Virus record (IMG/VR): IMGVR_UViG_2713896785_000022
Span: 1-23,668 of that record
Direction: 5' to 3' (one strand)
Source: a virus
Lineage: Duplodnaviria > Heunggongvirae > Uroviricota > Caudoviricetes
Length of the DNA stretch: 23,668 nucleotides
Part shown: positions 1-23,449 of the stretch, piece after piece
How the letters are laid out: every line of letters begins with the position of its first letter
How positions within the stretch are numbered: the first letter of the stretch is position 1
The notes under the pieces: model-generated
The model's input: only the letters and a program-made list of their open reading frames with translations
Databases searched by the model: none
Told to the model about the DNA's origin: nothing
Translations under genes and position numbers: made by a program

Positions 1-411
1 ATGCCTGCCCCCGTCGTCCTGATCCTTGCGGCCGGGCGTGGAGAGCGCTTTCTCGCCTCCGGGGGAAATACCCATAAGTGTATCGGCTGGCGTCAGTCCC
101 CGGAGGTTGCGCCTTATCGCTGGCCATTTGAAGAAAACGGGAGAACTTTCGACCTTGCGATTGAACCGCAGATTACGACTAATGATCTGCGTCTGATGTT
201 GAGGCTGGCTCTTGCCGGCGGAGGAATAACAATTGCCACTCAGGAAACTTTCAGGCCATATATTGAAAGCGGTAAGCTTGTATCGCTGCTTGATGACTTT
301 CTTCCACAATTTCCGGGCTTCTATCTGTATTTCCCACAGCGTCGCAATATTGCACCAAAGCTCCGCGCCCTGATTGACTACGTCAAAGAATGGCGGCAGC
401 AATTGGTTTAA
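1..411 (+). CDS. LysR-family transcriptional regulator, C-terminal fragment (5' end outside window)
   Basis: ORF runs from the window edge; the C-terminal portion (…GGGITIATQETF…GKLVSLLDDF…YLYFPQRRNIAPKLRALIDYV) resembles LysR co-inducer-binding domain ends. GC-rich, host-like composition. Confidence 0.5.
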   Translation: MPAPVVLILAAGRGERFLASGGNTHKCIGWRQSPEVAPYRWPFEENGRTFDLAIEPQITTNDLRLMLRLALAGGGITIATQETFRPYIESGKLVSLLDDFLPQFPGFYLYFPQRRNIAPKLRALIDYVKEWRQQLV

Positions 412-650
412 ATAGCTGCACCTGCACTGCCTGATGTCAGAACAGTATTTTGATGAATTGCCAAGGTTACAATGGCACAAATGCGGCACAGGAGGAAACG
501 TGGTGTATTTAAATATGGGGTGATAATAGGAATGAACATTACAAGTTAACACATTGATTTATAATAGATTATAATATTCAAAAAATATAACTATACACAT
601 ATCTATACACACTGCGTGCGTCGCTTGTTTTTCGCACAATTAAAAATAAG

Positions 651-952
651 AAAAAAGTTTTTTTTCGAAAGAACTGTTCACACTGTTCACATTTCTGTTT
701 TCTCCTTTTATTTCAGCATGATAGGTGGTGAATAATGGGTGAAGGGTGAACATTCGATTCTTCACCTCCGGCATTCTGCCGGTGTGACTCATACCGGTGA
801 TTAATCCCCCGTACTGAAAATCGCACAGGGAGAAAAAAGTTTTTTTTGATTTGATTGTTCACACTGTTCACCTTTCATTTTTCTCTTTTAATTTCAGTGT
901 GATAACGGGTGAATATACGGTGAAGGGTGAACAGTGGATTGTTCACCTTCGG
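651..952. repeat. P4 crr-like cis replication region: two ~120-bp direct repeats about 60 bp apart, each with TGTTCAC(C/A) octamers
   Basis: Repeat 1 (about 651-770) and repeat 2 (about 834-952) both begin AAAAAAGTTTTTTTT…TGTTCACACTGTTCAC and end …GGTGAAGGGTGAAC…TTCACC. The layout matches the known P4 crr and lies just downstream of the alpha gene. Confidence 0.7.
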
Positions 953-998
953 GGGAGGTCGGGATAAAAAAAAGACCGGCAGATGCCGGTCAGGTGGG

Positions 999-3332: not shown

Positions 3333-3346
3333 GGTGTAGTTCTCCT

Positions 3347-3667
3347 TCAGTGCAGTACCGGCGCTTTTATGTGACGGGCACAGAGTTCATCCATCACAAC
3401 CAGCCCGAGAAAGGACAGCGACGGCGCGGCCTTCAGGGGGCCGGATTCCATTAAATCTTCCAGCAGGGCACAGGCTATCTGACGCCCTTTTTCCTCACCG
3501 TGCTGGCGCAGATAAAAGCCTTCCAGCTCAGCGGCGATGGCCGCCTCCAGTGACTCAAGGGTGAGATGCGGGTAGCGGTGCTGACGTTCGCACACGGTCA
3601 GCCAGGCACAGGCGACAGCGCGACGGTAAAGGGCAGCGCGTAAGACGGGCGGTAAGGGTGTTTTCAT
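3347..3667 (-). CDS. P4-family conserved hypothetical protein (106 aa)
   Basis: ORF immediately upstream of alpha in the same orientation, 15-bp spacing; position matches the small ORF upstream of alpha in P4-like elements. Confidence 0.55.
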
Positions 3668-3802
3668 TTGCTTTCCTCCCTGTGACAGATGACTGCATTC
3701 TGTGCCGGTTGCATTAACTGATAAGGCATATCTGCGTCTCCTGAAGACGTGCGTATCCCTGCGCGAATACGCACATTTAATTTTTCGGGTGTCGTTTTTT
3801 AA

Positions 3803-4258
3803 TTACAGATAATTGCGGTAACTGTTATCCGGGGTGATTTCCGGGTCAGGCTCCGTGCGGGGAATTTCCCGCCATTCCCGCGCCACCGGTGCCGCCCGGC
3901 TGACCGGAACAGGGTCCTGCGGGTAAATATCCAGATATTTCTCCCGCCATTTCTGTAATTCCGGGTCTCCGGCCATTTCTTTCAGTACCGCATGCCGGTT
4001 TACGGGGCTGCGTTTGAACAGGTCAGGACGGTCACAGGTAAATTCCCGCAGAAAACGCCCCAGCGGGATGTCTGTGGTGCGCCCGTCGGCGAGGATACGC
4101 ACAAGGATACTGAATTTACGGCGGTACGGGTTCCAGACAATTTCCGGGCAGCGGTACGGCATTTCCCACGGAATACCGTCTTCCAGAATGCCGACCACGG
4201 CCACATCGGGAAAACCGGCAGAACGGTAAATCTCACCGGGCTGGGGAAAATCAAACAT
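3803..4258 (-). CDS. P4 orf151-like protein (151 aa)
   Basis: 151-aa ORF in the alpha operon; its ATG overlaps the stop of the upstream ORF (ATGTTTGA), suggesting translational coupling. Confidence 0.6.
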   Translation of the reverse strand: MFDFPQPGEIYRSAGFPDVAVVGILEDGIPWEMPYRCPEIVWNPYRRKFSILVRILADGRTTDIPLGRFLREFTCDRPDLFKRSPVNRHAVLKEMAGDPELQKWREKYLDIYPQDPVPVSRAAPVAREWREIPRTEPDPEITPDNSYRNYL

Positions 4259-4583
4259 GCGTCCTGTCTCCCCGGTCTTTCTGCTGGGCGAGAAAATCGC
4301 GGCACAGGCCTTTGGCTTTCAGTTCATTCAGCACAAAATCAATATCTTCATTCAGGTAACTGAAAATATGCGGAATGTAGAGCTGATGCAGGCCGGAGAG
4401 TTCACGGTGAATCAAATCACCCCCAACAAACTGGGATACGGCGCTGGCGCGGTTGAGCTTATGGTAAGCCTCAATGCTGAGGTGTTCACGGGCGTCATGA
4501 CGCGCTGAGACGGTCTGAGGGGGTTTTTTATTACGCACGGGACACCTCCACCACCGGCAGACGAGCAGCAAGGGAGAGCACAT
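4251..4583 (-). CDS. Hypothetical protein, possibly P4 epsilon-like; start uncertain
   Basis: C-terminal ~110 codons of the 4251..4778 ORF; stop overlaps the start of the 151-aa gene. Possible starts at 4583 or 4619, neither with a clear RBS. Confidence 0.3.
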
Positions 4584-5126
4584 AGTCACGGACAAGGGAA
4601 CGGCGGGCGCTGCGTTCATCACCGGCGACGGTGCGAAGCATACAGATACGGGGATGACGGTCTGCGCGACGGACAGCCGCAAACACAAAGACAAATTCAG
4701 GGTGTGAGGGGGTAAGGGTCGTAGCCATAAGGCAACCTCCGATAACAGCGTAAATGACGCTATCGCCGGAGTTTCCACGCTCGATGGCGATAGCCCAGAC
4801 GGGGGTGGAAATACCGGCGTTATCGGAAACCGGCCAGCCCGGAGGCTGCCCCGCCTGAGCTACCATTGACTCTGCGGTATAATGAGCGGACGCGGGCAGA
4901 ATGCACGGAGTGCCATTTGCTCGACTGACCACACACCACACCATAATCTGGCGCTCTGTGGCGTTGATTGCGACACAAAAAAAGACGCATGGCGCGTCAT
5001 ATGTCGCCGATAACATACTCGGGTTTCCACGCCCGGCTGCCGATTTTGCGGCAGCGGAAAAACTATATCCGCAAATGCCGGAAAAAGGCAAGCCAGAAAA
5101 AGGAAGTTTTTGCAGAACAGGCATCA

Positions 5127-5393
5127 TCATGCGTCGTACCCCCGTTTGCGTCCGGCAATGCGCCCGGCCATCCATGCGGTGACTTCAGAGTGCAGCCAGG
5201 CCACATTTTTACCGCCAAGACTCACCTGCGGCGGAAATTCCCCCTTACGGATGAGTTCATAGATGGTCGAGCGTGACAGGCCGCACAGGTGCATCACTTC
5301 CGGCAGACGTAAAAAACGCTCCTGCGTGATGTCCGGCAGCGGCATCAGTGGCGTCACAGGGGCGGGAGACGGGGAGGAAAAAACAGCTTGCAT
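5127..5393 (-). CDS. vis: Vis/AlpA-family excisionase-type regulator (88 aa)
   Basis: AlpA-like helix-turn-helix ([29 protein letters not shown]…[11 protein letters not shown]); 88 aa as in P4 vis; lies between the ori iterons and the alpha operon. Confidence 0.8.
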
Positions 5394-5671
5394 CGGGCTA
5401 CCTCGTTAATGTCCATACAGCACCGGATAAGTCCGTCCGGCTTCGGGTAGCGCTTTATTTTGTGAATATTTTCGGCAGACGCAACAGGGGGGATTTGTTC
5501 CGGCAGCCTTACAATGGCTGTGTATTTTTTGTACATCAGCGCCAGATAGCTTTAAAACGCTCTGGAAGGAGCTGGAAAAAATTATAGTGAAATACAAATT
5601 GTTTTTTCTTATTTATTTCAGTGAATTAATAAAAATAAAAAGTAATAAACAGCACAAAAAGCCCATCAACG

Positions 5672-5786
5672 GGTGAACAGTGGTGAACAGACGGTGAACA
5701 GTCATTACTGCGATTGTTCACCATTTAACTTACTGTATTACTTATCTTTTTTATTAAGGTGAATAGAGGTGAACAGAGGTGAACAG
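5672..5786. repeat. P4 ori-like iteron cluster (GGTGAACAG / TGTTCACC repeats)
   Basis: GGTGAACAG at 5672, 5682 and 5693; inverted TGTTCACC at 5715; GGTGAATAG at 5758; GGTGAACAG at 5768 and 5778, with an AT-rich spacer. Same octamer as in crr. Confidence 0.65.
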
Positions 5787-5864
5787 TAAAATATAAAAAA
5801 ACAAACAGTAAGCCGGTTTTTCCTGCGACCTTTTCCTGGCTTGCCGGTCTGAGGATGAGTCTCC

Positions 5865-5882
5865 TGTGTCAGGGCTGGCACA
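5865..5882 (+). promoter_or_regulatory. Candidate Delta/Ogr activator site (TGT-N12-ACA) of a Psid-like late promoter
   Basis: TGTgtcagggctggcACA lies about 70-90 bp upstream of the sid start codon, as expected for P2/P4 late promoters, which carry a TGT-N12-ACA dyad near -55. Confidence 0.4.
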
Positions 5883-5954
5883 TCTGCAATGCGTCGTGTT
5901 GTTGTCCGGTGTACGTCACAATTTTCTTAACCTGAAGTGACGAGGAGCCGGAAA

Positions 5955-6689
5955 ATGTCTGACAACACCATCCCTGAATATCTGCAACCCGCGCTGGCAC
6001 AACTGGAAAAGGCCAGAGCCGCCCATCTTGAGAACGCCCGCCTGATGGATGAGACCGTCACGGCCATTGAACGGGCAGAGCAGGAAAAAAATGCGCTGGC
6101 GCAGGCCGACGGAAACGACGCTGACGACTGGCGCACGGCCTTTCGTGCAGCCGGTGGTGTCCTGAGCGACGAGCTGAAACAGCGCCACATTGAGCGCGTG
6201 GCACGCCGGGAGCTGGTACAGGAATATGACAATCTGGCCGTGGTGCTGAATTTTGAACGTGAACGCCTGAAAGGGGCGTGTGACAGCACGGCCACCGCCT
6301 ACCGGAAGGCACATCATCACCTGCTGAGTCTGTATGCAGAGCATGAGCTGGAACACGCCCTGAATGAAACCTGTGAGGCGCTTGTCCGGGCAATGCATCT
6401 GAGCATCCAGGTACAGGAAAATCCGCTCGCCAACACCACCGGCCATCAGGGCTACGTCGCGCCGGAAAAGGCTGTCATGCAGCAGGTGAAATCATCGCTG
6501 GAACAGAAAATTAAACAGATGCAAATCAGCCTCACCGGCGAGCCGGTTCTCCGGCTGACCGGACTGTCAGCGGCAACACTCCCGCACATGGATTATGAGG
6601 TGGCAGGCACACCGGCACAGCGCAAGGTGTGGCAGGACAAAATAGACCAGCAGGGAGCAGAGCTTAAGGCCAGAGGACTGCTGTCATGA
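5955..6689 (+). CDS. sid: Sid-like capsid size-determination (external scaffold) protein (244 aa)
   Basis: ATG at 5955 with GAGGAG RBS 7 nt upstream; 244 aa as in P4 Sid; coiled-coil-rich; first gene of the sid-delta-psu block. Confidence 0.85.
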   Translation: MSDNTIPEYLQPALAQLEKARAAHLENARLMDETVTAIERAEQEKNALAQADGNDADDWRTAFRAAGGVLSDELKQRHIERVARRELVQEYDNLAVVLNFERERLKGACDSTATAYRKAHHHLLSLYAEHELEHALNETCEALVRAMHLSIQVQENPLANTTGHQGYVAPEKAVMQQVKSSLEQKIKQMQISLTGEPVLRLTGLSAATLPHMDYEVAGTPAQRKVWQDKIDQQGAELKARGLLS

Positions 6690-7186
6690 TTTACTGCCCG
6701 TCGTGTGGACATGTTGCTCACACCCGTCGCGCACATTTCATGGACGATGGCACCAAGATAATGATTGCACAGTGCCGGAATATTTATTGCTCTGCGACAT
6801 TTGAAGCGAGTGAAAGCTTTTTCTCTGACTGTAAAGATTCAGGAATGGAATACATTTCAGGCAAACAGAGATACCGCGATTCACTGACGTCAGCCTCCGG
6901 CAGTATGAAACGCCCGAAAAGAATGCTTGTTACCGGATATTGTTGTCGGAGATGTAAAGGCCTTGCACTGTCAAGAACATCGCGGCGTCTGTCTCAGGAA
7001 GTCACCGAGCGTTTTTATGTGTGCACGGATCCGGGCTGTGGTCTGGTGTTTAAAACGCTTCAGACCATCAACCGTTTCATTGTCCGCCCGGTCACACCGG
7101 ACGAACTGGCAGAAAGCCTGCATGAAAAACAGGAACTGCCGCCAGTACGGTTAAAAACACAATCATATTCGCTGCGTCTGGAATGA
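6686..7186 (+). CDS. delta: Delta-like late transcription activator (tandem Ogr-type zinc fingers, 166 aa)
   Basis: Two Ogr-like halves each with CxxC…CxxC (CPSCGH…CRNIYC and CCRRCK…CTDPGC); 166 aa as in P4 Delta; start overlaps the sid stop. Confidence 0.9.
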   Translation: MIYCPSCGHVAHTRRAHFMDDGTKIMIAQCRNIYCSATFEASESFFSDCKDSGMEYISGKQRYRDSLTSASGSMKRPKRMLVTGYCCRRCKGLALSRTSRRLSQEVTERFYVCTDPGCGLVFKTLQTINRFIVRPVTPDELAESLHEKQELPPVRLKTQSYSLRLE

Positions 7187-7259
7187 GGGCTGCCGGTTAA
7201 CACCGGCCGTCGCCGCACACCGTATTTTTATTCTTCAGCATGATGAGAAAGAGATAACG

Positions 7260-7832
7260 ATGGAAAGCACAGCCTTACAGCAGGCCTTTGACACCTGTCA
7301 GAATAACAAAGCAGCATGGCTGCAACGCAAAAATGAGCTGGCAGCGGCCGAACAGGAATACCTGCGGCTTCTGTCAGGAGAAGGCAGAAACGTCAGTCGC
7401 CTGGACGAATTACGCAATATTATCGAAGTCAGAAAATGGCAGGTGAATCAGGCCGCCGGTCGTTATATTCGTTCGCATGAAGCCGTTCAGCACATCAGCA
7501 TCCGCGACCGGCTGAATGATTTTATGCAGCAGCACGGCACAGCACTGGCGGCGGCACTGGCACCGGAGCTGATGGGCTACAGTGAGCTGACGGTCATTGC
7601 CCGAAACTGTGCCATACAGCGTGCCACAGATGCCCTGCGTGAAGCCCTTCTGTCCTGGCTTGCGAAGGGGGAAAAAATTAATTATTCCGCACAGGATAGC
7701 GACATTTTAACGACCATCGGATTCAGGCCTGACGCGGCTTCGGTGGATGACAGCCGTGAAAAATTCACCCCTGCGCAGAACATGATTTTTTCGCGTAAAA
7801 GTGCGCAACTGGCATCACGTCAGTCTGTGTAA
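7260..7832 (+). CDS. psu: Psu-like polarity suppression / capsid decoration protein (190 aa)
   Basis: 190 aa as in P4 Psu; last gene before cos in the sid-delta-psu block. Confidence 0.85.
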   Translation: MESTALQQAFDTCQNNKAAWLQRKNELAAAEQEYLRLLSGEGRNVSRLDELRNIIEVRKWQVNQAAGRYIRSHEAVQHISIRDRLNDFMQQHGTALAAALAPELMGYSELTVIARNCAIQRATDALREALLSWLAKGEKINYSAQDSDILTTIGFRPDAASVDDSREKFTPAQNMIFSRKSAQLASRQSV

Positions 7833-7996
7833 AATTCCCCGAAAATCCGCCTGTTTTTACTGAAAAAAGCCATGCATCGATAAGGTGCATAGCTTTGCAT
7901 GCGTTTCCCTGCCTCATTTTCTGCAGACCGCGCCATTCCCGGCGCAGTCTGAGCGTGTCAGTACAACTGCATTAAAACCGCCCCACAAAGCGGGCG

Positions 7997-8015
7997 GGCG
8001 AGGCGGGGAAAGCAC
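7997..8015. other. cos site: 19-nt P2/P4-type cohesive-end sequence GGCGAGGCGGGGAAAGCAC
   Basis: Exact match to the P2/P4 cohesive-end sequence as I remember it, located between psu and the cargo gene as in P4. Confidence 0.8.
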
Positions 8016-8425
8016 TGCGCGCTAAAAAGGAAATTGAAATCCAGTAACCCCAAATACCTTAGCTAAAAGAGCCTAAGGAATCTAACGCATTCAACTGTCA
8101 TAAAACATAATGTGTTACATAATGGAGATAGTGTGAAAACAACTGATATAGATCATAGAAGGCTTGGCTCCGTAAGACATCTAAGGTGTTATCTTAATCA
8201 ACTGCAGCAAAGGCATTCTGCCACTGTTAATGGAAACTTGTTTCGAATTGGATAACTTCAATGTTGCATCGTGTTTTACATATCTTGTTCAACTACAATA
8301 CATTGTTGCCTGCAAATTTAATTTTTTATTAGAATACTTGTAACTTAGTTCGCAGCATCAATTGTGTTTTTCAAACTTGATGTTAACTGATGATATGGAA
8401 CATTATTTGTTAGAAAGGTGATAAT

Positions 8426-10021
8426 GTGCAAGAACGGGATCTAGGAAGCATGGGCGAGGCATTATTTATGCAACTTTGCGCATCTGTTGGGTTAATATAC
8501 AACCCATCATTAAAAGACAGTGCTGGATGGGATTTCATTGTTGACTTCCCTACACAATTTTCAACTCACCCAATGATAGATAAAAGTGCATCCCCTATCG
8601 AGTGTAAAATTCAAGTCAAAGCAACTGATGGTACTTCAAAAAAAGTACAAATTACTTTATCAAATATGATGCGTTTATGCGGAAGTAAGCTCCCCGCTTT
8701 CTTTTTTTTCATTGAGTATAATAAAAGCAATACTCCACAAGCAGTTTATGTTAGACACTTTGATAAAAATCTAATGTTTAAAACATTACAAAGAGCCAGA
8801 GAAAACTCTATTTTAAAAGAACCCAAAAAACTGAACAAAATTAACATTACAGTATCATTTGACAGCCCCCATAAATTAGACGCAATAACAGGTGAACATT
8901 TAAAGTCTACAATTGAATCATACGTAAATGAAGGTATGGAAGTTTATACTGAAAAGAAAATAAATCACTTAAAAAATTTAGGTTATGAAAATGGAGGATA
9001 TAAATTAACTTTTCAGACAAAAGCGGAAGTTGAATACGATAATCTGATCAATGCGTCTCTTGGATGGGTTAATAAAGCGAAAGCTAGAAATATAAAGTGC
9101 TTTGACGAACGATTTAATATCTCTATGCCTCTTGAGAACAAGAGTTTTTCTGAAGCCGATTTATCGTTTGGGGTTGAAAATTTTGAAACAGATGCCATAT
9201 TGAAAATAACAAACATGACATCAAAAAAAACCATTCGCCTCGAATGTAAATTATATGTTAGTCCACTATCCATCAATGCTCCAGATAAGCATATCAAAGC
9301 AAGATTAAAATCCTCTTATTTCGACATTTTAATTTATCTTAAAACAGGACTCCTTACATATCGATTTGATTCATATGACAACATATTGAATCTATTTGAG
9401 ATCAAAGATAATTTAACCATCATGCGATGGATTTATGAACAGAAGGACATGCTGGAATTTGAAATAAATATTTCTAACAGTCATAACCCAATGACTTTAA
9501 TAACAAATGCCAATAAAGAACTAATACAAGACACCTCATTAATTGAAAGCTGTATTCAGGCATTAAATACAACAGAGAATGCTATTATTATATCTGACCG
9601 ATTAAGTATTCAGGGGCAAGTTAAGACAACTATTACAAAATTGGGTATACATAGTGATAATACTAACATAATTGGGCAATTACTAAGTAACCCAAATTAT
9701 TCCCCAGCAATGAAACTGACATCTAAGAATAAAATAAAATCACCCCCAAGTGAAATAAATGCATGTTGTTTAGCAGTTATCGCCACTAAACTAGGTGATT
9801 TTATAGTGCTTGTTATAATCACCATTAACGGAAAAGGAGTTTACTCTAAAAATGAATATCACCTGTCTAACCCCAGTATAAAATTAGAAGACATAATGTA
9901 TTGTTATCACAATGAAGATATCACAAAAAAATTAATAACAAAAACAAAATCAATAGCAGATAAACATATGAAAAGGGATGACATTGTCTTCATAAACTTA
10001 TTTCACGATGACAATAATTAG
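8426..10021 (+). CDS. Hotspot cargo gene: 531-aa protein with N-terminal DUF4365-like PD-(D/E)xK nuclease signature and unassigned C-terminal region; candidate anti-phage defence protein
   Basis: Long ORF in a strongly AT-rich segment between cos and int. GTG at 8426 (AAGGTG upstream) or ATG at 8450 (AGGAAG upstream). Motifs …KDSAGWDFIVDF… and …IECKIQVKATDG… fit the DUF4365 pattern. Followed by a strong terminator. Confidence 0.8.
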   Translation: MQERDLGSMGEALFMQLCASVGLIYNPSLKDSAGWDFIVDFPTQFSTHPMIDKSASPIECKIQVKATDGTSKKVQITLSNMMRLCGSKLPAFFFFIEYNKSNTPQAVYVRHFDKNLMFKTLQRARENSILKEPKKLNKINITVSFDSPHKLDAITGEHLKSTIESYVNEGMEVYTEKKINHLKNLGYENGGYKLTFQTKAEVEYDNLINASLGWVNKAKARNIKCFDERFNISMPLENKSFSEADLSFGVENFETDAILKITNMTSKKTIRLECKLYVSPLSINAPDKHIKARLKSSYFDILIYLKTGLLTYRFDSYDNILNLFEIKDNLTIMRWIYEQKDMLEFEINISNSHNPMTLITNANKELIQDTSLIESCIQALNTTENAIIISDRLSIQGQVKTTITKLGIHSDNTNIIGQLLSNPNYSPAMKLTSKNKIKSPPSEINACCLAVIATKLGDFIVLVIITINGKGVYSKNEYHLSNPSIKLEDIMYCYHNEDITKKLITKTKSIADKHMKRDDIVFINLFHDDNN

Positions 10022-10030
10022 TAATTTTCG

Positions 10031-10056
10031 AAGGGGCTAGCCCCTTTTCTTTTTTA
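10031..10056 (+). terminator. Rho-independent terminator after the hotspot gene
   Basis: Perfect palindrome AAGGGGCTAGCCCCTT followed by TTCTTTTTT, 10 nt after the stop codon. Confidence 0.7.
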
Positions 10057-10091
10057 TAAAAAATAAATACTAAAACTAAAAAACAATTATA

Positions 10092-11258
10092 TTAACTAAA
10101 AATATTATCTGAATACCATTGCATCATCACCTTTCGCTTTTCAAAATATTGGGCGTGATTATATGTTCCTCTTATAGAGTTTTTATCTACATGAGCAAGT
10201 TGCATTTCAATCCAAGCGGTATTAAAGCCATTTTCATGAAGAATTGTTGATAATGTATGCCTAAACCCATGTCCTGTAAGTTTTCCAGCATAGCCTATTC
10301 GTTTGATAAGTTGATTAACACTTGCCTCACTCATAGGTTTATTTGGATCATTCCGTCCAGGAAAAACATAACGATAATTTCCTGTCATAGATTTGAGTTC
10401 ATTAAGAAAGCCTAGCGCCTGCGTCGATAAGGGGACAAGGTGCGGCCTACGCATTTTCATTCTCTCAGCAGGAATTTCCCAAATAGCGTTATCTAGATCA
10501 AACTCTTGCCATAATGCTGCTCGTAACTCGATAGTTCTAACCCCCGTAACCATTAATAATTTTGTGGCAATCTGAACAAGTCGGCTTCCTGTATAACTAT
10601 CTAAAGCACGCAGAAAATCAGGTATCTCATCTGATTTTAAGAAAGGAAAATGATTTGATTTATGAACTTCAAGGGCACTGGACAGATCTGCCGCAGGATT
10701 AAACTCTGCTCTTCCAGTAGCAATGGCATATCGAAAAACCTCTGAGCAACGTTGCCGCACTTTGCGCATTTTCTCCAATGCACCACGCTTCTCAATTTTA
10801 CGCAGTACATTTAGCAATTCTAGCGGTTTAATTTCCCCTACAGGCCTCGCCCCCACATACGGAAAAATATCATTCTGGAACGCTTCAATAATATCTGAGG
10901 CATACCCAGCAGACCATTTTGCCGATTTCATCTGATGCCACTCTCTGGCAATCTTTTCGAATGCGTTCTCAGATTGAATTCTTAATGCTAGTTTTTGTTC
11001 TTTTCGAACCTCACTAGGATTTTTTCCCTCAGCCACTATTTTTCGTGCCTCATCACGGCGAGAACGAGCTTCAGCAAGTGTGATCGTTGGATAGACACCA
11101 AGCGAGATCATTTTAGGCTTACCTGCATAGCGGTAACGAAATCGCCAACTTTTACTTCCATTTGGCTCTACAAGTAAAGACAACCCTTGCCCATCCCCAA
11201 GTGTATAGGCTTTAGCTTCAGGTTTAGCACGGCGAATCTGCATATCATTTAGGGGCAT
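10092..11258 (-). CDS. int: P4-type tyrosine integrase (388 aa)
   Basis: N-terminal arm-binding domain typical of P4-family integrases (IRRAKPEAKAYTLGDGQGLSLLVEPNGSKSWRFRYRYAGKPKMISLGVYP), C-terminal catalytic region with …GHGFRHT… and …RGTYNH…; convergent with the cargo gene. Confidence 0.9.
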   Translation of the reverse strand: MPLNDMQIRRAKPEAKAYTLGDGQGLSLLVEPNGSKSWRFRYRYAGKPKMISLGVYPTITLAEARSRRDEARKIVAEGKNPSEVRKEQKLALRIQSENAFEKIAREWHQMKSAKWSAGYASDIIEAFQNDIFPYVGARPVGEIKPLELLNVLRKIEKRGALEKMRKVRQRCSEVFRYAIATGRAEFNPAADLSSALEVHKSNHFPFLKSDEIPDFLRALDSYTGSRLVQIATKLLMVTGVRTIELRAALWQEFDLDNAIWEIPAERMKMRRPHLVPLSTQALGFLNELKSMTGNYRYVFPGRNDPNKPMSEASVNQLIKRIGYAGKLTGHGFRHTLSTILHENGFNTAWIEMQLAHVDKNSIRGTYNHAQYFEKRKVMMQWYSDNIFS

Positions 11259-11583
11259 GTGTATAGAATTCCATAATCGAACAGGAACATATACATAATC
11301 CTATACACATTTAGTACTGGATTCCACTGGAAGGTTATGGACTAACATGGACAAAAAGAACAAAAAATCTTTTATAAAACAGTATGATTATGGATTAATA
11401 CGGATGTTTGAAGAAGTGGAGATGGTGCCGATAATAGGAGTAAAACACTCGATTAATCTCGTGTTAATGCCATCACCTACGACCATTACTAATTGATTGA
11501 ATCTTATAGAAAAATCATCATTTTCTATGCGTCACAATCAATTTTCACATTACAAACGCTCCGACACTTTAGCCGGAGATTTT

Positions 11584-15894: not shown

Positions 15895-16923
15895 TTACGC
15901 TACTGTGATCTGCACAGAGAAGCCAACACCGTGGTTAACCACAAGCGAGCTATTCTCGGTCACTACGTGCACTGCGTCGCCGCGATTCGATTCGAAAGCA
16001 TAGCTGTAATACTCTTTAGCGCCTTGAGACAGCAGATCGAAGGAACTGGAAGGCGCGCCATAGATAGCTTGGTAAACACCTCCACCCTTAGCGAATTTAG
16101 GCACGGCTACAGCGTCAGCGGTCATATGTGCCAGCAGCAGCGGATCAGTCACTTTGATCAGATCAATGTTAGTTCCTGGAATGGTGAAAGTAGTTACGCC
16201 AGGCAGCAGAGAACGCACATTAAACACCACGTTTGCATCGTCTACAGGGCTTGCATATTGGAACGCATTGACCATGCCAACGCTGTAACGAATAGCGTTG
16301 AATGCCGCAGGTTTACAGAACACAACAACACGCTCAATGGTTGCAGCCTGGCTTTGTGCCTTAGCAATCATATCCGTATGCATCTGATCAAATTGCTTGA
16401 ATACGGTCATTGTGTTGGTGCTGGATGCGTCAACGGTTGCAGTCATTGGAGACACACCGAACAGAGTGCTGTAATCGATCAGAACATCGTCAGTTTTCGG
16501 GGTATGTGTCTTGCCAGAGAACAGAGAAGCCGCGAGGATGCTTTCTTTAGTGCGCTGGAATGCAACATTGTGTTTAGCGATATATTCCGCATACAGATCC
16601 GGCAGTGTTTCTTCAATAGAGCTTCCGGCTTTGCGTTTGCCTTGCACGTCCTGCGGTTTGATCAGGTCTTCACGCAGGAAGTAAGGGATTTCAATCAGCC
16701 ATTCTTCCCCGTTCTCACGCTTAGTAACGTTATGCTCAGAGCTAAAACGGCTTGTAGGATGGTTGAACAGAGATTCATTGCTCTCGATAAGCTGGGAAAC
16801 AGCCACTTTGTGACTTTCTACAGGCACAGGATCAGTAAAATCCAGAGTAGACAGTAGGTAATTGCGTGAGTCGTTTAATTCGAACAGTGGAGCAAGATCA
16901 ACCACTTCATTTCCGATAATCAT
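15895..16923 (-). CDS. Major capsid protein, lambda gpE-like (342 aa)
   Basis: Length matches lambda gpE (341 aa); C-terminus …GFSVQITVA resembles the gpE C-terminus as I recall it (…FVSVQLA); directly preceded by a ~118-aa gene in D-then-E order. Confidence 0.65.
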   Translation of the reverse strand: MIIGNEVVDLAPLFELNDSRNYLLSTLDFTDPVPVESHKVAVSQLIESNESLFNHPTSRFSSEHNVTKRENGEEWLIEIPYFLREDLIKPQDVQGKRKAGSSIEETLPDLYAEYIAKHNVAFQRTKESILAASLFSGKTHTPKTDDVLIDYSTLFGVSPMTATVDASSTNTMTVFKQFDQMHTDMIAKAQSQAATIERVVVFCKPAAFNAIRYSVGMVNAFQYASPVDDANVVFNVRSLLPGVTTFTIPGTNIDLIKVTDPLLLAHMTADAVAVPKFAKGGGVYQAIYGAPSSSFDLLSQGAKEYYSYAFESNRGDAVHVVTENSSLVVNHGVGFSVQITVA

Positions 16924-17505: not shown

Positions 17506-18497
17506 TTATATAACGATTCCATTATGTTGGAATTTAATAAATCCCCCAGGCTATAAGAGGTTCAATCTGACAATAGCGAGGGGGATTTATTAACGTGTCG
17601 GGCAATACACAGCGATAAGTAAAACCTTGAGGAGGTTTTAAACGTATCTCTAAGAATGCTTATTAAACATGCTTAAAGATAGGTTTAAAGGGTGAACAGA
17701 TATTCCTGAAAACATGCTCTTAGGAAAACATGCGGAATCAATCAGGAATATCTATTCGGGGCGCGGTGGCTAACCGCTATCTTTCATGGTGTGGATGCAC
17801 CAGTCAGATTTTAAGGAATCACTGTTCCAATCTACTCACAGATTAAATTTTAATAGGGATTAACTACACCAACAGTAATCTACCGTTTCAGAAAAAGCTT
17901 TTTTACAACCAAAGATTATAGATTTGCAGTCTATAAAACCCGTTTTGCTATCAATATTTCCAAAGGTTATTGCACAATTCTTAGCTAAACTCTCTCTGCT
18001 TGCGGCTAACGCTATGCAGATGATTGTTTTTGACAACAACTTAATAGATTATTCTGTTACTAACTTCTGTCATTAAATAAGAGTTTAATGATGTTAGTAA
18101 ATAGTTATAAAATATAACTATCAGTGTAAGGCTCTTTAATGTTTTCGGACAAAATAAGGAGCTTTAGGATAAGCATAGATGAAAATAAGAGCGGGAAGGG
18201 CAAGGAGATAACACCTACCCGCTTTTATCAAAAATTAAGCACAATGCCTAACAACATTCATCAACACAACGTAGAAACAATCAACAATCAAAGAGGGAGT
18301 TATGATTATTCTAAAACTTCTTGAGGGGATGGAAGGTAATATTTGTTAGAGGTTAATGCCACTCAACCTTTGAGGCTATCACCTTCCATATGCAGGGATT
18401 TATGACAGTAGAAGGATTAACACCAGTCAAAACCTTTTTATCTACCCCTAATATTATTATATAATGAAATCGTTATAAATGCAAATGATTTTCATTA

Positions 18498-18806: not shown

Positions 18807-19009
18807 TATGCGGCTTCTCCTTGTAATGCATCATTAATCATATTCAATACGATGTTAAAAGGTGTCTTGAGCGTCAGCACTTCATCACGGTAACGCTCTA
18901 ATGCTTCGTAGTCTTCTGTTTCTTTTGCCAGCCGAATTAACTCTGCATAGTTTTTTGCATCAGACAGGATCATCTGAAATAATTGTGTTTCTTGAATATA
19001 GCCAATCAT
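18806..19009 (-). CDS. Small hypothetical protein (67 aa; ORF could extend to 19051)
   Basis: ATG at 19009 has an AAGGA RBS; stop overlaps the start of the downstream gene (ATGA). Confidence 0.45.
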   Translation of the reverse strand: MIGYIQETQLFQMILSDAKNYAELIRLAKETEDYEALERYRDEVLTLKTPFNIVLNMINDALQGEAA

Positions 19010-19066
19010 TATTTTTCCTTTTTTGAATATTTTCATTGGGCGCTTATACATACACCCATCATTTTA

Positions 19067-19450
19067 TTAGTTAGAACGTTTGTTAGAAGCTAATGTATCT
19101 TCTAAATGAGCCATCAGATCGACTTCCGATGCACCACCTACACAATTATTGAAAGCGTTAAATCCCAAAAAATGATGATAGGAGCTAAACCCTAAAAGCT
19201 GCCAACGTTTCAGAGTGCCATCAGAAATGATAGTTTGTTTTCTTGTTCTTGGGCGAAAGTAAACGCCTGGCATTGATTGGATTATTTCTAATTCTTCATC
19301 ACTTAATTCAGGGGATTCTGTTTCAAGAATAAAGATTATCTCTTCCCCTGGAATTTCGTTATTGGTATGTGTCGGTGGACGTTGTCTTGTTGAATTGAAA
19401 TTACTGTTTTTTTCAATACGTTTTAAGTTGTTCTTTTTCTTTCTTCCCAT
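19067..19450 (-). CDS. Hypothetical protein with basic N-terminus (127 aa)
   Basis: ORF in the same cluster; N-terminal MGRKKKNNLKR… lysine/arginine-rich stretch. Confidence 0.5.
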   Translation of the reverse strand: MGRKKKNNLKRIEKNSNFNSTRQRPPTHTNNEIPGEEIIFILETESPELSDEELEIIQSMPGVYFRPRTRKQTIISDGTLKRWQLLGFSSYHHFLGFNAFNNCVGGASEVDLMAHLEDTLASNKRSN

Positions 19451-19546
19451 TTTCCCTCTTTTTATGTGGATTATAAAAACTGAATGCCATAGTTACGATG
19501 AATATCGCCATAAATGCATTTGCCATATGTATTGCCCGATCTGTTG

Positions 19547-19816
19547 TTATTGATTGTTTGTGATAAACAATTCAAAATCTTTGTTTAATTTCAAAAGACG
19601 AAATGTAGTGCTGTTAATCCCTTCATAATCCAGCACACCGAACGATGTAAAATGGTTTAACCAATGATTCACGTGTTGTGCGCTGTAGCCGCCTAAACTA
19701 CAAAAGCTAACCACTGTCGGGGGTGAGAACTCTATGTCCAAAATAGATTTTAAAATGTTGTATCCGCTCTCAGTTATTTCAATAGTTTTGTTTCCTATAG
19801 TGATGTTATAAGCCAT
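19547..19816 (-). CDS. Hypothetical protein (89 aa)
   Basis: ORF in the same cluster and orientation, 10 bp downstream of the 208-aa gene. Confidence 0.5.
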   Translation of the reverse strand: MAYNITIGNKTIEITESGYNILKSILDIEFSPPTVVSFCSLGGYSAQHVNHWLNHFTSFGVLDYEGINSTTFRLLKLNKDFELFITNNQ

Positions 19817-19825
19817 TTATTCTCC

Positions 19826-20452
19826 TTAAAAGGGTAGTGAATCATATATTGTGCTCTCACTTTTGAGATCAATTATCAAAGAGTCAAAATCATTTTCACA
19901 AAGATAGATATTCTTTGAATCTAATGCTCGTTTTACAAAATCTTCTGTTTCTTCGTGCGGTGGTTTCTTCTTATCAAGGGAAAGAAGCCAAGTAAAAATT
20001 TCGGGCCGCTCAGGGAACTCTGATTCCTGTTTTTCTTCTTCAACGATGATTTCTGAAACATTCAATATTTCATTAGATTCGTTTTCTTTCTCAGAAGGAT
20101 CAGGTAGTGATGACTCTCCTGGGGGAGTAATATGTGCATCTGTGAGAGGGAGAGCATTGTAAATCAAAGATGAAATATACGGATCAGGATGTGGGGATGT
20201 TTCTAATAATCCCATCTCTTTAAGATCGTTTATCTTACGTTTAATTGTTGATGGTGAAGACTTAAAAATCTTAGCTAATGTTTCGTGACTTTCATAACAA
20301 TTAAGACCATTTTCCTGATAACTAAGAAATCTATAATAAAGAACAATGTGCAATAAATCTAAAACCTTACCTTCTGGAAATTCATTAGAGTAAATCTTTG
20401 ATATATTATCAAACGTGTTATAGTGTTTTGTAAAAGTTGGCTGGTTTATCAT
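19826..20452 (-). CDS. Winged-helix DNA-binding protein with acidic C-terminal half (208 aa); putative replication initiator or regulator
   Basis: N-terminal …CYESHETLAKIFKSSPSTIKRKINDLKEMGLLE… resembles winged-helix motifs of replication-organizer and regulator proteins; C-terminal half is Glu/Asp/Ser-rich. Confidence 0.55.
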   Translation of the reverse strand: MINQPTFTKHYNTFDNISKIYSNEFPEGKVLDLLHIVLYYRFLSYQENGLNCYESHETLAKIFKSSPSTIKRKINDLKEMGLLETSPHPDPYISSLIYNALPLTDAHITPPGESSLPDPSEKENESNEILNVSEIIVEEEKQESEFPERPEIFTWLLSLDKKKPPHEETEDFVKRALDSKNIYLCENDFDSLIIDLKSESTIYDSLPF

Positions 20453-20503
20453 TAAAAATCTCCTTATAAATCACGCTTAATGCGCTACTAAAGTGAATGA
20501 GGA

Positions 20504-20671
20504 TCACTTACCCTTTTTTTGTTTGATGTTCTCTGCTGCTTCAGTAATGATTTCTAACATCAAATCACTGACCATAATTTGCCTTTTCTTGGCTTCAGCA
20601 AATAAAATCTTGAAAATTTCAGGGTCAACGTGTAGGTAAGTGCGTGGAATTGGTTTCTTGGTTTCGCTCAT
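20504..20671 (-). CDS. Ribbon-helix-helix (CopG/Arc-like) small DNA-binding protein (55 aa)
   Basis: Not in the ORF track (<60 aa). ATG at 20671 with AGGAGAAGGAGA RBS; MSETKKPIPRTYLHVDPEIFKILFAEAKKRQIMVSDLMLEIITEAAENIKQKKGK has the beta-strand plus two helices typical of RHH regulators and antitoxins. Confidence 0.5.
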   Translation of the reverse strand: MSETKKPIPRTYLHVDPEIFKILFAEAKKRQIMVSDLMLEIITEAAENIKQKKGK

Positions 20672-20692
20672 AGTTTTCTCCTTCTCCTGTTA

Positions 20693-20875
20693 TTATTCTT
20701 TCTCTGCTTCTGCCTTACGCAGTTCATCAATAATTTTTAGTGCATCGTCAAAGCATTTTTCACGCTCTGGATAACCACAACGGCGAGCGGTGTTTCTATA
20801 CATCCTTACTTTAAAGCGGTTGATCTCACCACGTTTCCAGGCTTCTACTACATCCTGTGGAGTGAAATATTTCAT
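20693..20875 (-). CDS. Small hypothetical protein (60 aa), first gene of the leftward small-gene operon
   Basis: ORF directly upstream of the RHH gene; downstream of a ~1.5-kb repeat-rich non-coding region. Confidence 0.45.
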   Translation of the reverse strand: MKYFTPQDVVEAWKRGEINRFKVRMYRNTARRCGYPEREKCFDDALKIIDELRKAEAEKE

Positions 20876-21336
20876 TAATTAACCTCCTATTCTATTTGGT
20901 TAAAAGAAAAAGACACCTTGCAAGCCTTGGGCTTCAAAGTGCGGTGCATTGGTTTAATTATTTAGAGGATAAGAATCTATTCCTGTCCCTCTAATACCTA
21001 TTATTGCACAGAAAGAGACGTTTGTCAATACCCTTTTCGCAAAAAAAATCGATCTTTTTCAGCATGTTATAATTTGTCTTAGCAATTCGTGCTCTTACGA
21101 GTACTCCTATTCTTCCTTATTCTCTAAAACGCTCTAAAATGCGTTCTAACGAGGTTTTGATAAAAACAATACATTCCCTTATGTAGAGGCTGTTTAGCTC
21201 GCCAGAGGCTTATTTAAGGGGTAGAATCTCATCTACTACCTAACATCTTTAAACCATATTTTTCTTTTTTGTCTGTTTGATGGTTGATCTATAGTTATGC
21301 GTTAGCATCCCCAAAGGGGTAACGCTACTCTAATTG

Positions 21337-21359
21337 CATTCGCCAGAACATTGCACAAG
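21337..21359. repeat. Left arm of a 23-bp inverted repeat (CATTCGCCAGAACATTGCACAAG); a related direct partial copy lies near 21450-21479
   Basis: Reverse complement matches 21687..21709 with one mismatch. Confidence 0.6.
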
Positions 21360-21686
21360 AAATTTATTTTAGATGATTGATGATCGTTAGATTGGCGTAA
21401 GCCTCATCAATGGAACTATTGAAGCGCACAGCGCATAGACACTAACAACCATTCGCTTACGCTCAGGTTATTGCACAAGTAAATTTCAATCGTTAGATGG
21501 TAGTTAGTTAATTATCGTTCTGCGCACAGCGCAAGACTATTTAGCCTTACGCAAGCCGTAGGCTATTTGCACATAGTAGATTACATATTCGTTGTGAGCG
21601 GCATTAGCGAACATAGATCTACTAACTAACATCAACAAACAAAAAACTATGTGTTATGACAAGCAGTCTAACGACTAACACTCTAA

Positions 21687-21709
21687 CTTGTGCAAGGTTC
21701 TGGCGAATG
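21687..21709. repeat. Right arm of the 23-bp inverted repeat (CTTGTGCAAGGTTCTGGCGAATG)
   Basis: 22/23 match to the reverse complement of 21337..21359; the arms are ~330 bp apart and ~700 bp upstream of the serine recombinase gene. Confidence 0.6.
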
Positions 21710-21851
21710 CCAATAGATTAAAGGATAGTCGTTAGACTCCCTAACGGGTATCCCTATAATTATTCTTATAAAGATAAAAAAGAATTATATTATATAGTTT
21801 AATAGTTAGTTTTATTATTAGTATTATCGTTAGTCTTATTGTGGTTCAAAT

Positions 21852-21906
21852 TGACCTACCCCCCTAGCTCACAGTGACCTACCCCCCTAGCTCACAGTGA
21901 CCTACC
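21852..21906. repeat. Tandem 23-bp iteron-like direct repeats (TGACCTACCCCCCTAGCTCACAG, about 2.4 copies)
   Basis: Two perfect 23-bp units (21852-21874, 21875-21897) plus a 9-bp partial third, in an AT-rich non-coding stretch. Confidence 0.7.
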
Positions 21907-22407
21907 GTTACATCCATTTATCACATAACATCTGTGCAATGATCTTCTAAAAGTGTTTCTTGCTACCAAAATTAAACATCTAAAACAGGCTTAAATTCAA
22001 GATTAATTGATGATTAATCCTTATGTAATTCCTACGTAAAAATTCAATGAAAAGTAGCTTAAAAGTGCAATGTTAGCTTTCTTCACTTTTACATCACTTT
22101 CGCTGCGCCTTGTGTAATGCGGCATATAGCGCATCACTGCAAAATTGTTGCTCAATAAACGTTCTATCATTTGTCGAACAAGTTTCTTTAATGCAACAAA
22201 AAATTATTTTTTCAAAATAAACACACTATTTAATAGCTTGCTAATTTTACCAAAACGTAACTACATGATTCTCATGCAAGACGTGTAGTGATAAAGCAGG
22301 CTAAATCACCACACTAAAAACCTTCGAATTTCGTAGTGAAAAAAGTCCTTTACACACCTAATCAACACGATCAATAATCACTACACACAAATCAACACAG
22401 AAGGAAA

Positions 22408-22965
22408 ATGAAAATGGCTAATATTGGATACATTAGGGTATCGACTGTCCAACAAAACACAGACCGTCAATTAGCTGGAGTAACTCTTGATAAAGTCTTT
22501 GAAGATAAAGCGTCAGGCAAGAATACCCAGCGCCCACAGTTTGAGGCAATGATGAACTATGTGCGGGAAGGTGATGTTTTGCATGTTCACAGCATTGATC
22601 GACTTTGCCGTAATACAGCCGACCTACTGGCAACGGTTGAGCAATTAACAGAGCGCGGCGTGTCTGTGCATTTCCATAAAGAAGACTTTAAGACAGGGAA
22701 GAACTCTCCCGCAGGGAATATGATGCTCACAGTGCTTGCAGCAGTGGCACAAATGGAACGTGAAATGATGCTTGAGCGGCAGCGTGAGGGGATCGCCGCA
22801 GCTAAGGCCGCTGGACGTATAGCAAAACGTGGTAATGGAAAAGCAATTGATCGAGCGGGAATTGTTGCCGCTCTCGCGAATGGTGGATCAATTCGGAGCG
22901 TAGCAAAAGATTTCAGTGTCAGCACACAGACGGTGCAACGTATCAAGAAAGAGCAGGAAGCGTAA
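22408..22965 (+). CDS. Serine recombinase (resolvase/invertase family, about 185 aa; likely start at 22414)
   Basis: N-terminal catalytic motif MANIGYIRVSTVQQNTDRQ with the active-site Ser context, C-terminal HTH (…SIRSVAKDFSVSTQTVQRIKK…); AGGA RBS upstream. Confidence 0.85.
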   Translation: MKMANIGYIRVSTVQQNTDRQLAGVTLDKVFEDKASGKNTQRPQFEAMMNYVREGDVLHVHSIDRLCRNTADLLATVEQLTERGVSVHFHKEDFKTGKNSPAGNMMLTVLAAVAQMEREMMLERQREGIAAAKAAGRIAKRGNGKAIDRAGIVAALANGGSIRSVAKDFSVSTQTVQRIKKEQEA

Positions 22966-23290
22966 TGCCTCCTGATATTTCAGAATTGTCGCCGCGTGGA
23001 CCTGACGGCGCTGATCTTCGCGTTAAACATTGATCACGTTTGCGCCGATTTCAGATAAAAAGGCAGCTATTAAGCAATACGTAACTTTTACAATTAGTGA
23101 AATTATCTAAAACACAAGTTATATAGATGAGAAAATGAAATATTATCTTGAACAAATCAAACAAAACAACACATCATCTTGTTGACACCATGCAAAGTGA
23201 ATAGTAAGCTATTATATGTGAAAATTTGCACATTGCATGCAATAAAAAATAAATGATACCTTGTTGTTGTTAAATCAATAGGGGGTATCT

Positions 23291-23449
23291 ATGCGCTTTA
23301 TCTTATCCATTTTAAAAACCTGCAGAACCACAATTACTTTAGCTGTAATTGTTACCATCATATACCTCATCTATTTTACCCCTCGAGATAAAATCGATTC
23401 ACTAGCGATCATCGTTCATGCAATGGCTACATTAACTAAAAAACTTTAA
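23291..23449 (+). CDS. Small hydrophobic protein (52 aa), putative single-pass membrane peptide
   Basis: Not in the ORF track. ATG at 23291 preceded by AGGGGG RBS; MRFILSILKTCRTTITLAVIVTIIYLIYFTPRDK… has one predicted transmembrane helix. Confidence 0.3.
   Translation: MRFILSILKTCRTTITLAVIVTIIYLIYFTPRDKIDSLAIIVHAMATLTKKL

Follow-up and report, generated by a model that had tools for sequence, protein, structure and literature searches.

A probable replication origin and control region in a non-coding gap of a phage-satellite-like island of Escherichia coli

The PLE of Vibrio cholerae and the virulent phage ICP1 form the closest described counterpart of the locus reported here. The PLE origin is non-coding and holds a few semi-palindromic iterons, and Odn of ICP1 copies the DNA-binding domain of PLE RepA and cuts the PLE origin at these iterons (PMC8263062). 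This phenomenon of an origin and a nuclease directed at it has so far been shown only for PLE and ICP1. In this study, a 23,668-nucleotide stretch of Caudoviricetes DNA (IMG/VR record IMGVR_UViG_2713896785_000022, positions 1 to 23,668), referred to below as the window, was analyzed. A 1.5-kb gap between genes at positions 20876-22407 lies on a 12.9-kb island that looks like a phage satellite, and we conclude, with a probability of roughly 0.65, that the island has its replication origin and control region in this gap.

The island resembles PLE in several respects. Its few iterons lie in non-coding DNA; its initiator-like protein, a 208-amino-acid (aa) winged-helix protein termed Rep, has a swappable N-terminal DNA-binding domain and works, if it is an initiator, on an element without its own helicase or primase; and the replicon cassettes vary between otherwise similar islands. 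In addition, a virulent phage, in this case inny with its protein gp184, joins an initiator-type DNA-binding domain to a nuclease of the GIY-YIG superfamily, as does ICP1 with Odn. On the other hand, the island initiator is HTH_36, O-like or DnaD_N-like whereas that of PLE is RepA_N, the island iterons measure 22-23 bp against about 30 bp in PLE, and in the inny protein, unlike in Odn, two island-type domains of different kinds follow each other. E. coli is the host, and the candidate helpers are Stephanstirmvirinae of about 150 kb. The λ origin with its O protein and the iteron plasmids (pSC101, P1, F and R6K, RepA type) have in common with the island tandem direct repeats of about two turns beside an AT-rich tract, and a winged-helix initiator with N-terminal specificity and C-terminal partner recruitment. 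However, the island origin would lie outside the initiator gene, unlike that of λ; no DnaA boxes were found in the gap, unlike in most iteron plasmids; and the island protein is much shorter (208 aa), with one winged-helix domain.

To compare the gap, 30 related islands were taken from IMG/VR prophage contigs and from E. coli genomes, where they occupy tRNA-Thr or tRNA-Gly. All 30 contain an unannotated gap of 1.5-2.9 kb with no conserved open reading frame (ORF), which extends from the gene for a 60-aa protein to a serine recombinase gene or its empty place. The preliminary description of the window had read tandem 23-bp units at 21852-21906 as iterons of an origin, to be tested together with the 208-aa winged-helix gene. 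Tandem Repeats Finder (TRF) reported the same repeat (period 23, 2.4 copies, 100% match, score 110), and an imperfect unit precedes it, so that the window has three tandem 23-bp units, an adjoining AT tract, and, on the same element, an initiator-like protein that co-varies with the repeats. The relatives have 2-5 dyad-containing units of 22-23 bp directly to the right of the AT tract. In this tract TRF found an AT-rich 24-mer in 2.2 copies; it is conserved in the loci with one core allele (wcore, see below), and the corresponding DNA is AT-rich in the loci with the other (altcore) too. The repeat array at 21846-21912 is hypervariable among the relatives, and the block at 21913-22407 is conserved.

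Four unrelated types of Rep N-terminal domain, A to D, were found among the relatives, and the class of repeat co-varied with the type of domain in all 30 islands. Class A, TGACCTACCCCC(C)TAGCTCACAG, accompanied Rep type A in 15 of 15 loci (3-5 copies in 12 and fewer in three) and was found only with type-A Rep. Class B, TTCTGTnGGGGTGGCTAACAG, was present with type B in 6/6 loci, and class C, GGAACTCATTTCCTAGGTAG, with type C in 8/8 when the diverged units of locus L034 are counted. These three classes form tandem arrays. Class D, GTAAC-N4-5-GTTAC, consists of five units at an irregular spacing of 20-45 nt and occurred in both loci with type D. Types A, B and C are each found with both core alleles, and since the DNA between the Rep gene and the repeats has been shuffled independently, linkage alone is insufficient to explain the pairing. 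The comparison of the window with L006 illustrates this: the two are 99% identical over 19001-20120, 81-96% identical over 20445-21815 and 95% identical over 21888-23066, with two unrelated segments in between, namely 20121-20444, which contains the codons of Rep residues 1-110, and 21816-21887, which contains the iterons. The codons of the Rep domain and the iterons were thus exchanged together as two non-adjacent cassettes, as a protein and its binding sites would require. These results show specificity between Rep and the iterons, from which we infer binding, and the class-A iterons of the window are proposed as candidate binding sites of the Rep N-terminal domain. The comparative data therefore support the origin served by the 208-aa gene, as it had been suggested from the repeats.

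Several arrays stand side by side in the gaps of two islands, L022 and L029 (e.g., positions 1221-1540 of the L029 gap): class A, class C, an orphan class, GGGTATCAGnnTTGATAGGGG, and class A again. No Rep matching the orphan class was present in the sample. Such multiple arrays may be composite origins or decoys.

In Rep, an N-terminal DNA-binding domain (about residues 1-110, type A in the window) is followed by an acidic, disordered linker and then by a C-terminal domain that is small and helical. In the AlphaFold model, the mean confidence (pLDDT) was about 86 for the winged helix, below 40 for the linker and 67 overall. Among the relatives the protein is a domain mosaic, in which identical linkers and C-terminal domains (19826-20120) are attached to unrelated N-terminal domains (20121-20444), and a type A N-terminus precedes either of two unrelated C-terminal domains, which gives forms of 208 and 230 aa. 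All seven PHROG matches of the 208-aa protein were replication initiators, O-like or DnaD-like loaders (E-values of 1e-7 to 8e-4). The same held for every PHROG match of all four Rep types, which were weak (1e-7 to 1e-12) and, for the 230-aa form, covered up to about 160 residues. Beyond "winged helix", nothing about the structure was learned from fold and profile searches. The C-termini of all Rep variants end in ...YDS(L/I)PF or ...(E/D)DFDIPF, and that of the 208-aa protein reads ...IYDSLPF (codons 19826-19850). The C-terminal tip of E. coli SSB, DFDDDIPF, recruits PriA, DnaG, chi and others, and the end of Rep resembles this tip in sequence.

A mechanism can be proposed from these features. 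Rep dimers would bind the iterons through the N-terminal domain, with the specificity seen in the co-variation, and the AT tract at 21750-21843 beside the iterons would then melt. The C-terminal domain with its SSB-tip-like end (...YDSLPF or ...DFDIPF) would recruit replication proteins of the host or of a helper phage; this recruitment is proposed because the island has no helicase or primase. The serine recombinase would be an accessory gene product that probably binds the repeats by its own promoter for autoregulation and perhaps for the resolution of replicated multimers, and would not invert the segment 21360-21686.

Several points weigh against the proposal. The 208-aa protein shows only weak homology to initiators (1e-7 at best), Pfam gives HTH_36 alone, and the top matches of the fold search were generic winged-helix regulators, with plasmid RepA and DnaD among the weaker ones. 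The 30 loci, all from Escherichia, are non-independent samples that collapse to seven combinations of Rep type and core allele. No DnaA box (TTATCCACA, with up to one mismatch) or IHF consensus (WATCAANNNNTTR) was found in 20876-22407; such sites are common, not universal, in iteron origins. The Rep gene is 1.4 kb away from the iterons, of which the window has only about three. An origin also leaves without explanation the conserved core, where most of the repeats of the preliminary description lie. The parallel with a phage nuclease covers types C and D, and the window is of type A. Finally, the case for an origin is a comparative one.

Table 1. Positions of features in the window
Feature	Position	Strand	Remarks
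Left att repeat, 21-bp copy of the tRNA-Thr 3' end	11422..11442	.	21/21 match
208-aa winged-helix protein, putative initiator (Rep)	19826..20452	-	Pfam HTH_36, 1.7e-5
55-aa protein	20504..20671	-	Ribbon-helix-helix look by eye; no Pfam, PHROG or NCBIfam match
60-aa protein, gene 1 of the leftward operon	20693..20875	-	Two lineage forms paired with the two core alleles
Promoter of the leftward operon, σ70-like	21000..21028	-	TTGACA, 17-nt spacer, AATAAT, extended -10; 11/12 consensus
34-nt inverted repeat, left arm	21326..21359	+	In allelic, variable DNA
wcore, nearly invariant 356-bp module	21370..21725	.	Sub-units ATTGCACAAG, TCGTTAGA and GCGC-ACA-GCGC hairpin; holds the right arm (21687-21720)
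GCGCACAGCGCA, copy 1	21424..21435	+	Small hairpin
GCGCACAGCGCA, copy 2	21522..21533	+	
AT-rich tract, candidate DNA-unwinding element	21750..21843	.	83% AT; directly left of the iterons
Three 23-bp class-A iterons	21846..21912	+	Starts at 21846 (imperfect unit), 21869 and 21892; dyad TAGCTCACAGTGACCTA, then a C run
Recombinase-type-specific 9-mers	22283..22386	.	GTGTAGTGA (22283), TCACCACAC (22306), TCGTAGTGA (22331), TCACTACAC (22378)
Small serine recombinase, 185 aa	22408..22965	+	Pfam Resolvase, 1e-38
Phage-terminus-like stretch	22969..23051	+	80% identity to non-coding DNA close to the termini of phAPEC8-like genomes

The co-variation of protein and repeats proves specific recognition and not replication, and the 23-bp repeats could also be an operator array, with the 208-aa protein acting as a transcription repressor or activator of the island instead of an initiator. 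The RefSeq names of the relatives ("transcriptional regulator" or "HTH domain-containing protein") and the best fold matches of the protein, which are MarR-type regulators, agree with such a role, and a promoter-like site at 21733-21760 (10/12) reads into the repeats. However, none of the PHROG matches of the four Rep types was a regulator, and the repeats are clear of both main promoters (21000-21028 and 22349-22378). Furthermore, direct tandem repeats with a two-turn spacing beside an 83% AT tract are the classic layout of an origin, and an SSB-tip-like C-terminus makes sense for the recruitment of a replisome. It is therefore unlikely that the repeats serve as operators instead of an origin.

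The remainder of the gap was examined for other functions that a control region might contain. As the preliminary description had stated, the gap is AT-rich (64.6% AT overall) and non-coding: all ORFs within 20876-22407 are shorter than 50 aa, and the RefSeq annotation of NZ_CP027544.1 contains no feature there. A hidden gene was also rejected, since the 65-aa GTG ORFs of some relatives are unannotated and not conserved in the window. Rfam searches at gathering and permissive thresholds gave no family in the gap of the window or of seven relatives; matches were obtained elsewhere only (C4/isrK in the neighboring P4-like element, and tRNAs). The left 345 bp of the gap hold the strong leftward promoter, which reads toward the 60-aa gene and whose -35 sequence is kept in 7/7 aligned loci. 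The 60-aa protein is 73-100% identical by tblastn in the wcore loci and 58-68% identical in the seven altcore loci measured. An indel polymorphism of about 145 bp at 21192-21221, flanked by a 30-bp direct repeat (TTTAGCTCGCCAGAGGCTTATTTAAGG-like), was also seen, with the extra DNA present in L005-L007 and others.

Repeats in the gap were evaluated against first-order Markov randomizations matched for dinucleotide frequency (200 for repeat scores and 500 for GCGCACAGCGCA). The best ungapped inverted repeat scored 22 (randomized, 12.7 ± 1.9; maximum, 20), and the best direct repeat 32 (randomized, 11.0 ± 1.1). The motifs already reported for the gap were all recovered: CGTTAGA-type motifs (CGTTAG eight times, against a mean of 0.59, and TCGTTAGA five times, against 0.04), GCGCACAGCGCA at 21424 and 21522 (0 in 500 randomizations), the partial direct copy, which lies at 21449-21479 (ATTCGC..CAG..ATTGCACAAG), and the inverted pair, which proved longer than described (34 nt, 88% complementarity, 21326-21359/21687-21720). 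The description of this pair needs a correction, as it is part of a longer bipartite module, ATTCGCCAGAACmTTGCACAAG ... TCGTTAGAyTG, that is present in two direct copies (from 21330 and 21449) and one inverted copy (21655-21722); the inverted pair represents two of these copies. In addition, TTGCACA, which had not been listed, occurs six times in the gap (randomization mean, 0.29). A role of this motif as the operator of the leftward promoter was rejected, because it overlaps the promoter in only three of seven aligned loci.

Most of these repeats lie in the core. Its 356-bp allele, wcore, was present in 17 loci, and an unrelated allele of about 835 bp, altcore, in the other 13. All wcore loci with full-length matches shared 91-100% identity in this module, also in those cases in which the flanking DNA fell to 74%. 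Of the left arm of the inverted pair, the central part is kept at 22 of 26 positions in the other allele. GCGC-ACA-GCGC hairpins are interspersed in the core, and six loci lack 21441-21521, a natural 82-bp deletion between the direct GCGCACAGCGCA copies. The sole significant collinear stretches between wcore and altcore are CTGCGCACAGCGCAA and, 53-61 nt further on, TTCGkTGTGAGCGG; between them lie hairpins that differ in sequence between the alleles. In altcore, variation lies in the hairpin loops, and the GNRA loops (GAAA/GGAA) are retained. The core allele tracks the type of the Rep C-terminal domain (17:13, no exception), which could reflect function or merely lineage. A strict coupling of the core allele to the recombinase type is broken by L034, which combines altcore with the 185-aa-type recombinase. 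The core was also considered as a miniature inverted-repeat transposable element or transposon, but its copies are confined to this island family, with 1-5 per genome. Candidate roles of the core are an accessory origin module with loading hairpins, an array of regulatory sites, and a non-coding RNA.

The last of these would be compatible with an origin. Under it, the core (21370-21725) would encode one or more non-coding RNAs, e.g., an immunity or antisense RNA with pairing inverted copies, as in the CI RNA of P4 with seqA/seqC. The near-invariance of the core amid mosaic surroundings, the small GC hairpins with GNRA-type loops in which the other allele varies with GNRA kept, and the two anchors common to both alleles with different hairpins between them are in line with an RNA. 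Both strands also folded better than shuffled sequences (z = -2.95 and -4.14), but these scores are inflated by the inverted repeats in the DNA, and substitutions are too few for a covariation test. There are no divergent copies for such a test because no relatives of the island were found outside Escherichia: the Rep probe found nothing among 185,579 species representatives, and the recombinase relatives in Rahnella, Buttiauxella and Citrobacter lie in unrelated contexts. Moreover, no Rfam match was obtained for the core at any threshold, a clear promoter-terminator pair was not found, and the 82-bp deletion tolerated in six loci fits redundant binding sites better than one folded RNA. Taken together, these results leave an RNA from the core a small chance.

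A packaging-recognition site was considered as another explanation of the 23-bp repeats. In λ, three repeats of cosB are bound by the winged-helix protein gpNu1. By analogy with this arrangement, the repeats would correspond to the R elements of cosB or to pac repeats, and Rep would be a factor like the small terminase whose C-terminal domain engages the large terminase of the helper; satellites often redirect packaging, and the two types of Rep C-terminal domain would suit helper specificity. Nevertheless, no terminase-family match was found in Pfam or PHROGs, the AT tract and the SSB-like tip would be unexpected for a terminase subunit, and a better, separate candidate exists in the phage-terminus-like stretch immediately downstream of the recombinase gene. 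We therefore regard a packaging role of the repeats as improbable. For this terminus-like sequence of 85 nt, positions were noted in L029 (6329-6374) and L117 (7387-7471) as well as in the window. Other islands have a second version, which shares 93.5% identity with the left terminal repeat annotated in phi92, and 29 of the 30 islands have one of the two versions. The stretch of the window is a candidate mimic of a packaging site or terminal repeat and, by its sequence, a pointer to candidate helper phages. The core itself was rejected as a mimic of a helper cos/pac site, since no phage match to 20880-22410 or to altcore was found; a search of 50,697 phage records with 20880-22410 gave no match of note. 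A reading of the core motifs TCGTTAGA, TTGCACAAG and GCGCACAGCGC as phage promoters was likewise rejected: the first 50 kb of one phAPEC8-type genome, a third of its length, showed no enrichment of them.

Further links to phages of this group were found in the genes. The 55-aa gene shows 98% DNA identity to phages muut and inny, and the closest phage relatives of the capsid-E-family protein of the island (15895-16923) are the major head proteins of phAPEC8-type phages (25% full-length identity; E-value of about 1e-8). The gp184 protein of inny, a Justusliebigvirus, has 367 aa (L115, 2289-3392) and comprises two winged-helix domains and a nuclease domain of the GIY-YIG clan (PF13455 at its cutoff; phrog_681 endonuclease, 4e-18). 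Its winged-helix domains are 86.7% identical to the N-terminus of Rep type D and 89-91% identical to that of type C, and the adjacent gp185 (L115, 3430-3612) is a copy of the 55-aa gene of the island. inny was the only phage with such a chimeric protein, and no iteron array of any class was found in the phage records. The gp184 protein is an independent sign, at the level of sequence, that the binding domains of the island matter.

These links suggest a wider picture, which we put forward tentatively and at somewhat less than even odds. The islands, which occupy tRNA-Thr and tRNA-Gly and occur in about 13% of the complete genomes, would be a common satellite family of E. coli that parasitizes large virulent Stephanstirmvirinae myophages (phAPEC8-like and phi92-like), with at least four classes of origin cassette that diversify under origin-directed phage nucleases such as inny gp184; this would be the counterpart of PLE, ICP1 and Odn, with the core as a second, lineage-specific cis module for the origin or for sensing of the helper. 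The family would be an undescribed one; no description of the island, its proteins or any satellite of Stephanstirmvirinae was found in the literature that could be searched. If this is true, E. coli would offer a tractable model of satellite origin specificity, with natural swaps of initiator domains and iterons and a phage nuclease that seems to have taken over these domains. A function would also be assigned to the unannotated 1.5-2.9-kb gap in hundreds of E. coli genomes, those of pathogenic strains included. In addition, therapeutic-type phages (relatives of phAPEC8 and phi92) would be likely partners of a resident island, which bears on host range and on failures of phage therapy.

Full-length matches of the serine recombinase next to the gap were obtained to the Tn3 and γδ resolvases (1e-27, with an identity judged by eye at about 40%); it also matches Gin (7e-25) and phrog_125, "DNA invertase" (2e-62), and is missing from seven of the 30 islands. 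Four 9-mer copies (GTGTAGTGA/TCACyACAC) flank its promoter (-35 at 22349 and -10 at 22373); they include one 32-bp dyad (22283-22314), and the distances between the others exceed what a dimer could span. At the same place, islands with a 179-aa recombinase have three copies of CAAATGAATAC (L017), and a Citrobacter locus (L038) with a 66% identical recombinase has three copies of TACCGAT. Since each type of recombinase has its own short repeats there, its sites were placed at 22283-22386, which are candidate binding sites for autoregulation and perhaps multimer resolution. Short type-specific repeats with a 32-bp dyad, at most about 130 bp upstream of the recombinase gene and around its promoter, recall the res sites of Tn3 and γδ. 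The island differs from these in that no three-subsite res architecture can be demonstrated, the recombinase is dispensable, and there is no transposase. A res-like role, which had been suggested for the inverted pair, does not hold for that pair; a res-like or autoregulatory role is possible for the repeats directly upstream of the gene.

The inverted repeats had also been taken as possible crossover sites or boundaries of an invertible segment. The segment 21360-21686 resembles the systems of Hin, Gin, Cin and Pin in that a significant inverted pair with arms 327 bp apart has, about 700 bp away, a small serine recombinase that is comparable in size and equally close to Gin and to the resolvases; it differs from them in containing no tail-fiber or other gene. 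A 340-nt query for the inverted state was compared with about 510 matching complete E. coli genomes. The inverted junction was found in none of them (best coverage, 63%, from the native right junction only), and the native junction used as the control was fully covered in 116; assemblies report the majority orientation, and a rare or infection-induced inversion could escape them. Similarly, the 86-bp segment with the recombinase promoter (22292-22377), which lies between perfect 9-bp inverted repeats, was inverted in 0/296 genomes. A standing phase switch is thus very unlikely from these sequences, and switching of 21360-21686 by the adjacent recombinase at the 34-bp repeats is hardly credible, given in addition that six loci compared by BLAST (L002-L007) showed no inversion, that L024 and L025 keep the core and both arms with the recombinase gene absent, that no hix/gix-like site occurs in the window (hix-consensus pattern with up to three mismatches), that the 34-nt arms, as read from the sequence, have no dyad symmetry of their own, and that the left arm lies in variable DNA. 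Of the earlier interpretation, the origin was therefore retained and the inverted repeats as crossover sites or boundaries were abandoned.

At 20880-22410, the window and the E. coli 2013C-3264 chromosome (NZ_CP027544.1) show 100% identity, and matches to this DNA were found in 713 of 5,426 complete E. coli genomes, nearly all of them chromosomal; these 713 genomes contain more than 860 copies. The 2013C-3264 annotation places tRNA-Thr (thrW), adjacent to proA, about 630 bp past the end of the window. Because the left att repeat is a 21-bp copy of the 3' end of this tRNA, the island was delimited as 12.9 kb from 11422 to about 24319; the att match was read on L001 (10543-10563 against 23420-23440), to whose coordinates 879 is added to obtain those of the window. 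On the basis of Pfam and PHROG matches, the island encodes a tyrosine integrase, Dit-like, tape-measure-like and capsid-E-family proteins and several small proteins, in addition to Rep, the 55-aa and 60-aa proteins, the 1,532-bp gap and the 185-aa recombinase. Neither a terminase nor a portal was found among the island proteins scanned (the nine largest ORFs and several small ones). A small integrated island with an integrase, att repeats and a partial set of phage genes resembles a phage satellite in its gene content.

The left neighbor of the island, at 1-11300 of the window, is a P4-like satellite with a primase (999-3332), an integrase and Psu- and Delta-like genes, as well as the C4 antisense RNA (4783-4870) and isrK (4978-5055). 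Two satellites are therefore present in tandem at thrW. A 531-aa protein of unknown function is encoded at 8426-10021, in low-GC DNA adjoining the integrase of the P4-like element. The island itself has a second gap of about 1 kb (17506-18497), which is unannotated in RefSeq and contains only small mechanical ORFs of 50-61 aa.

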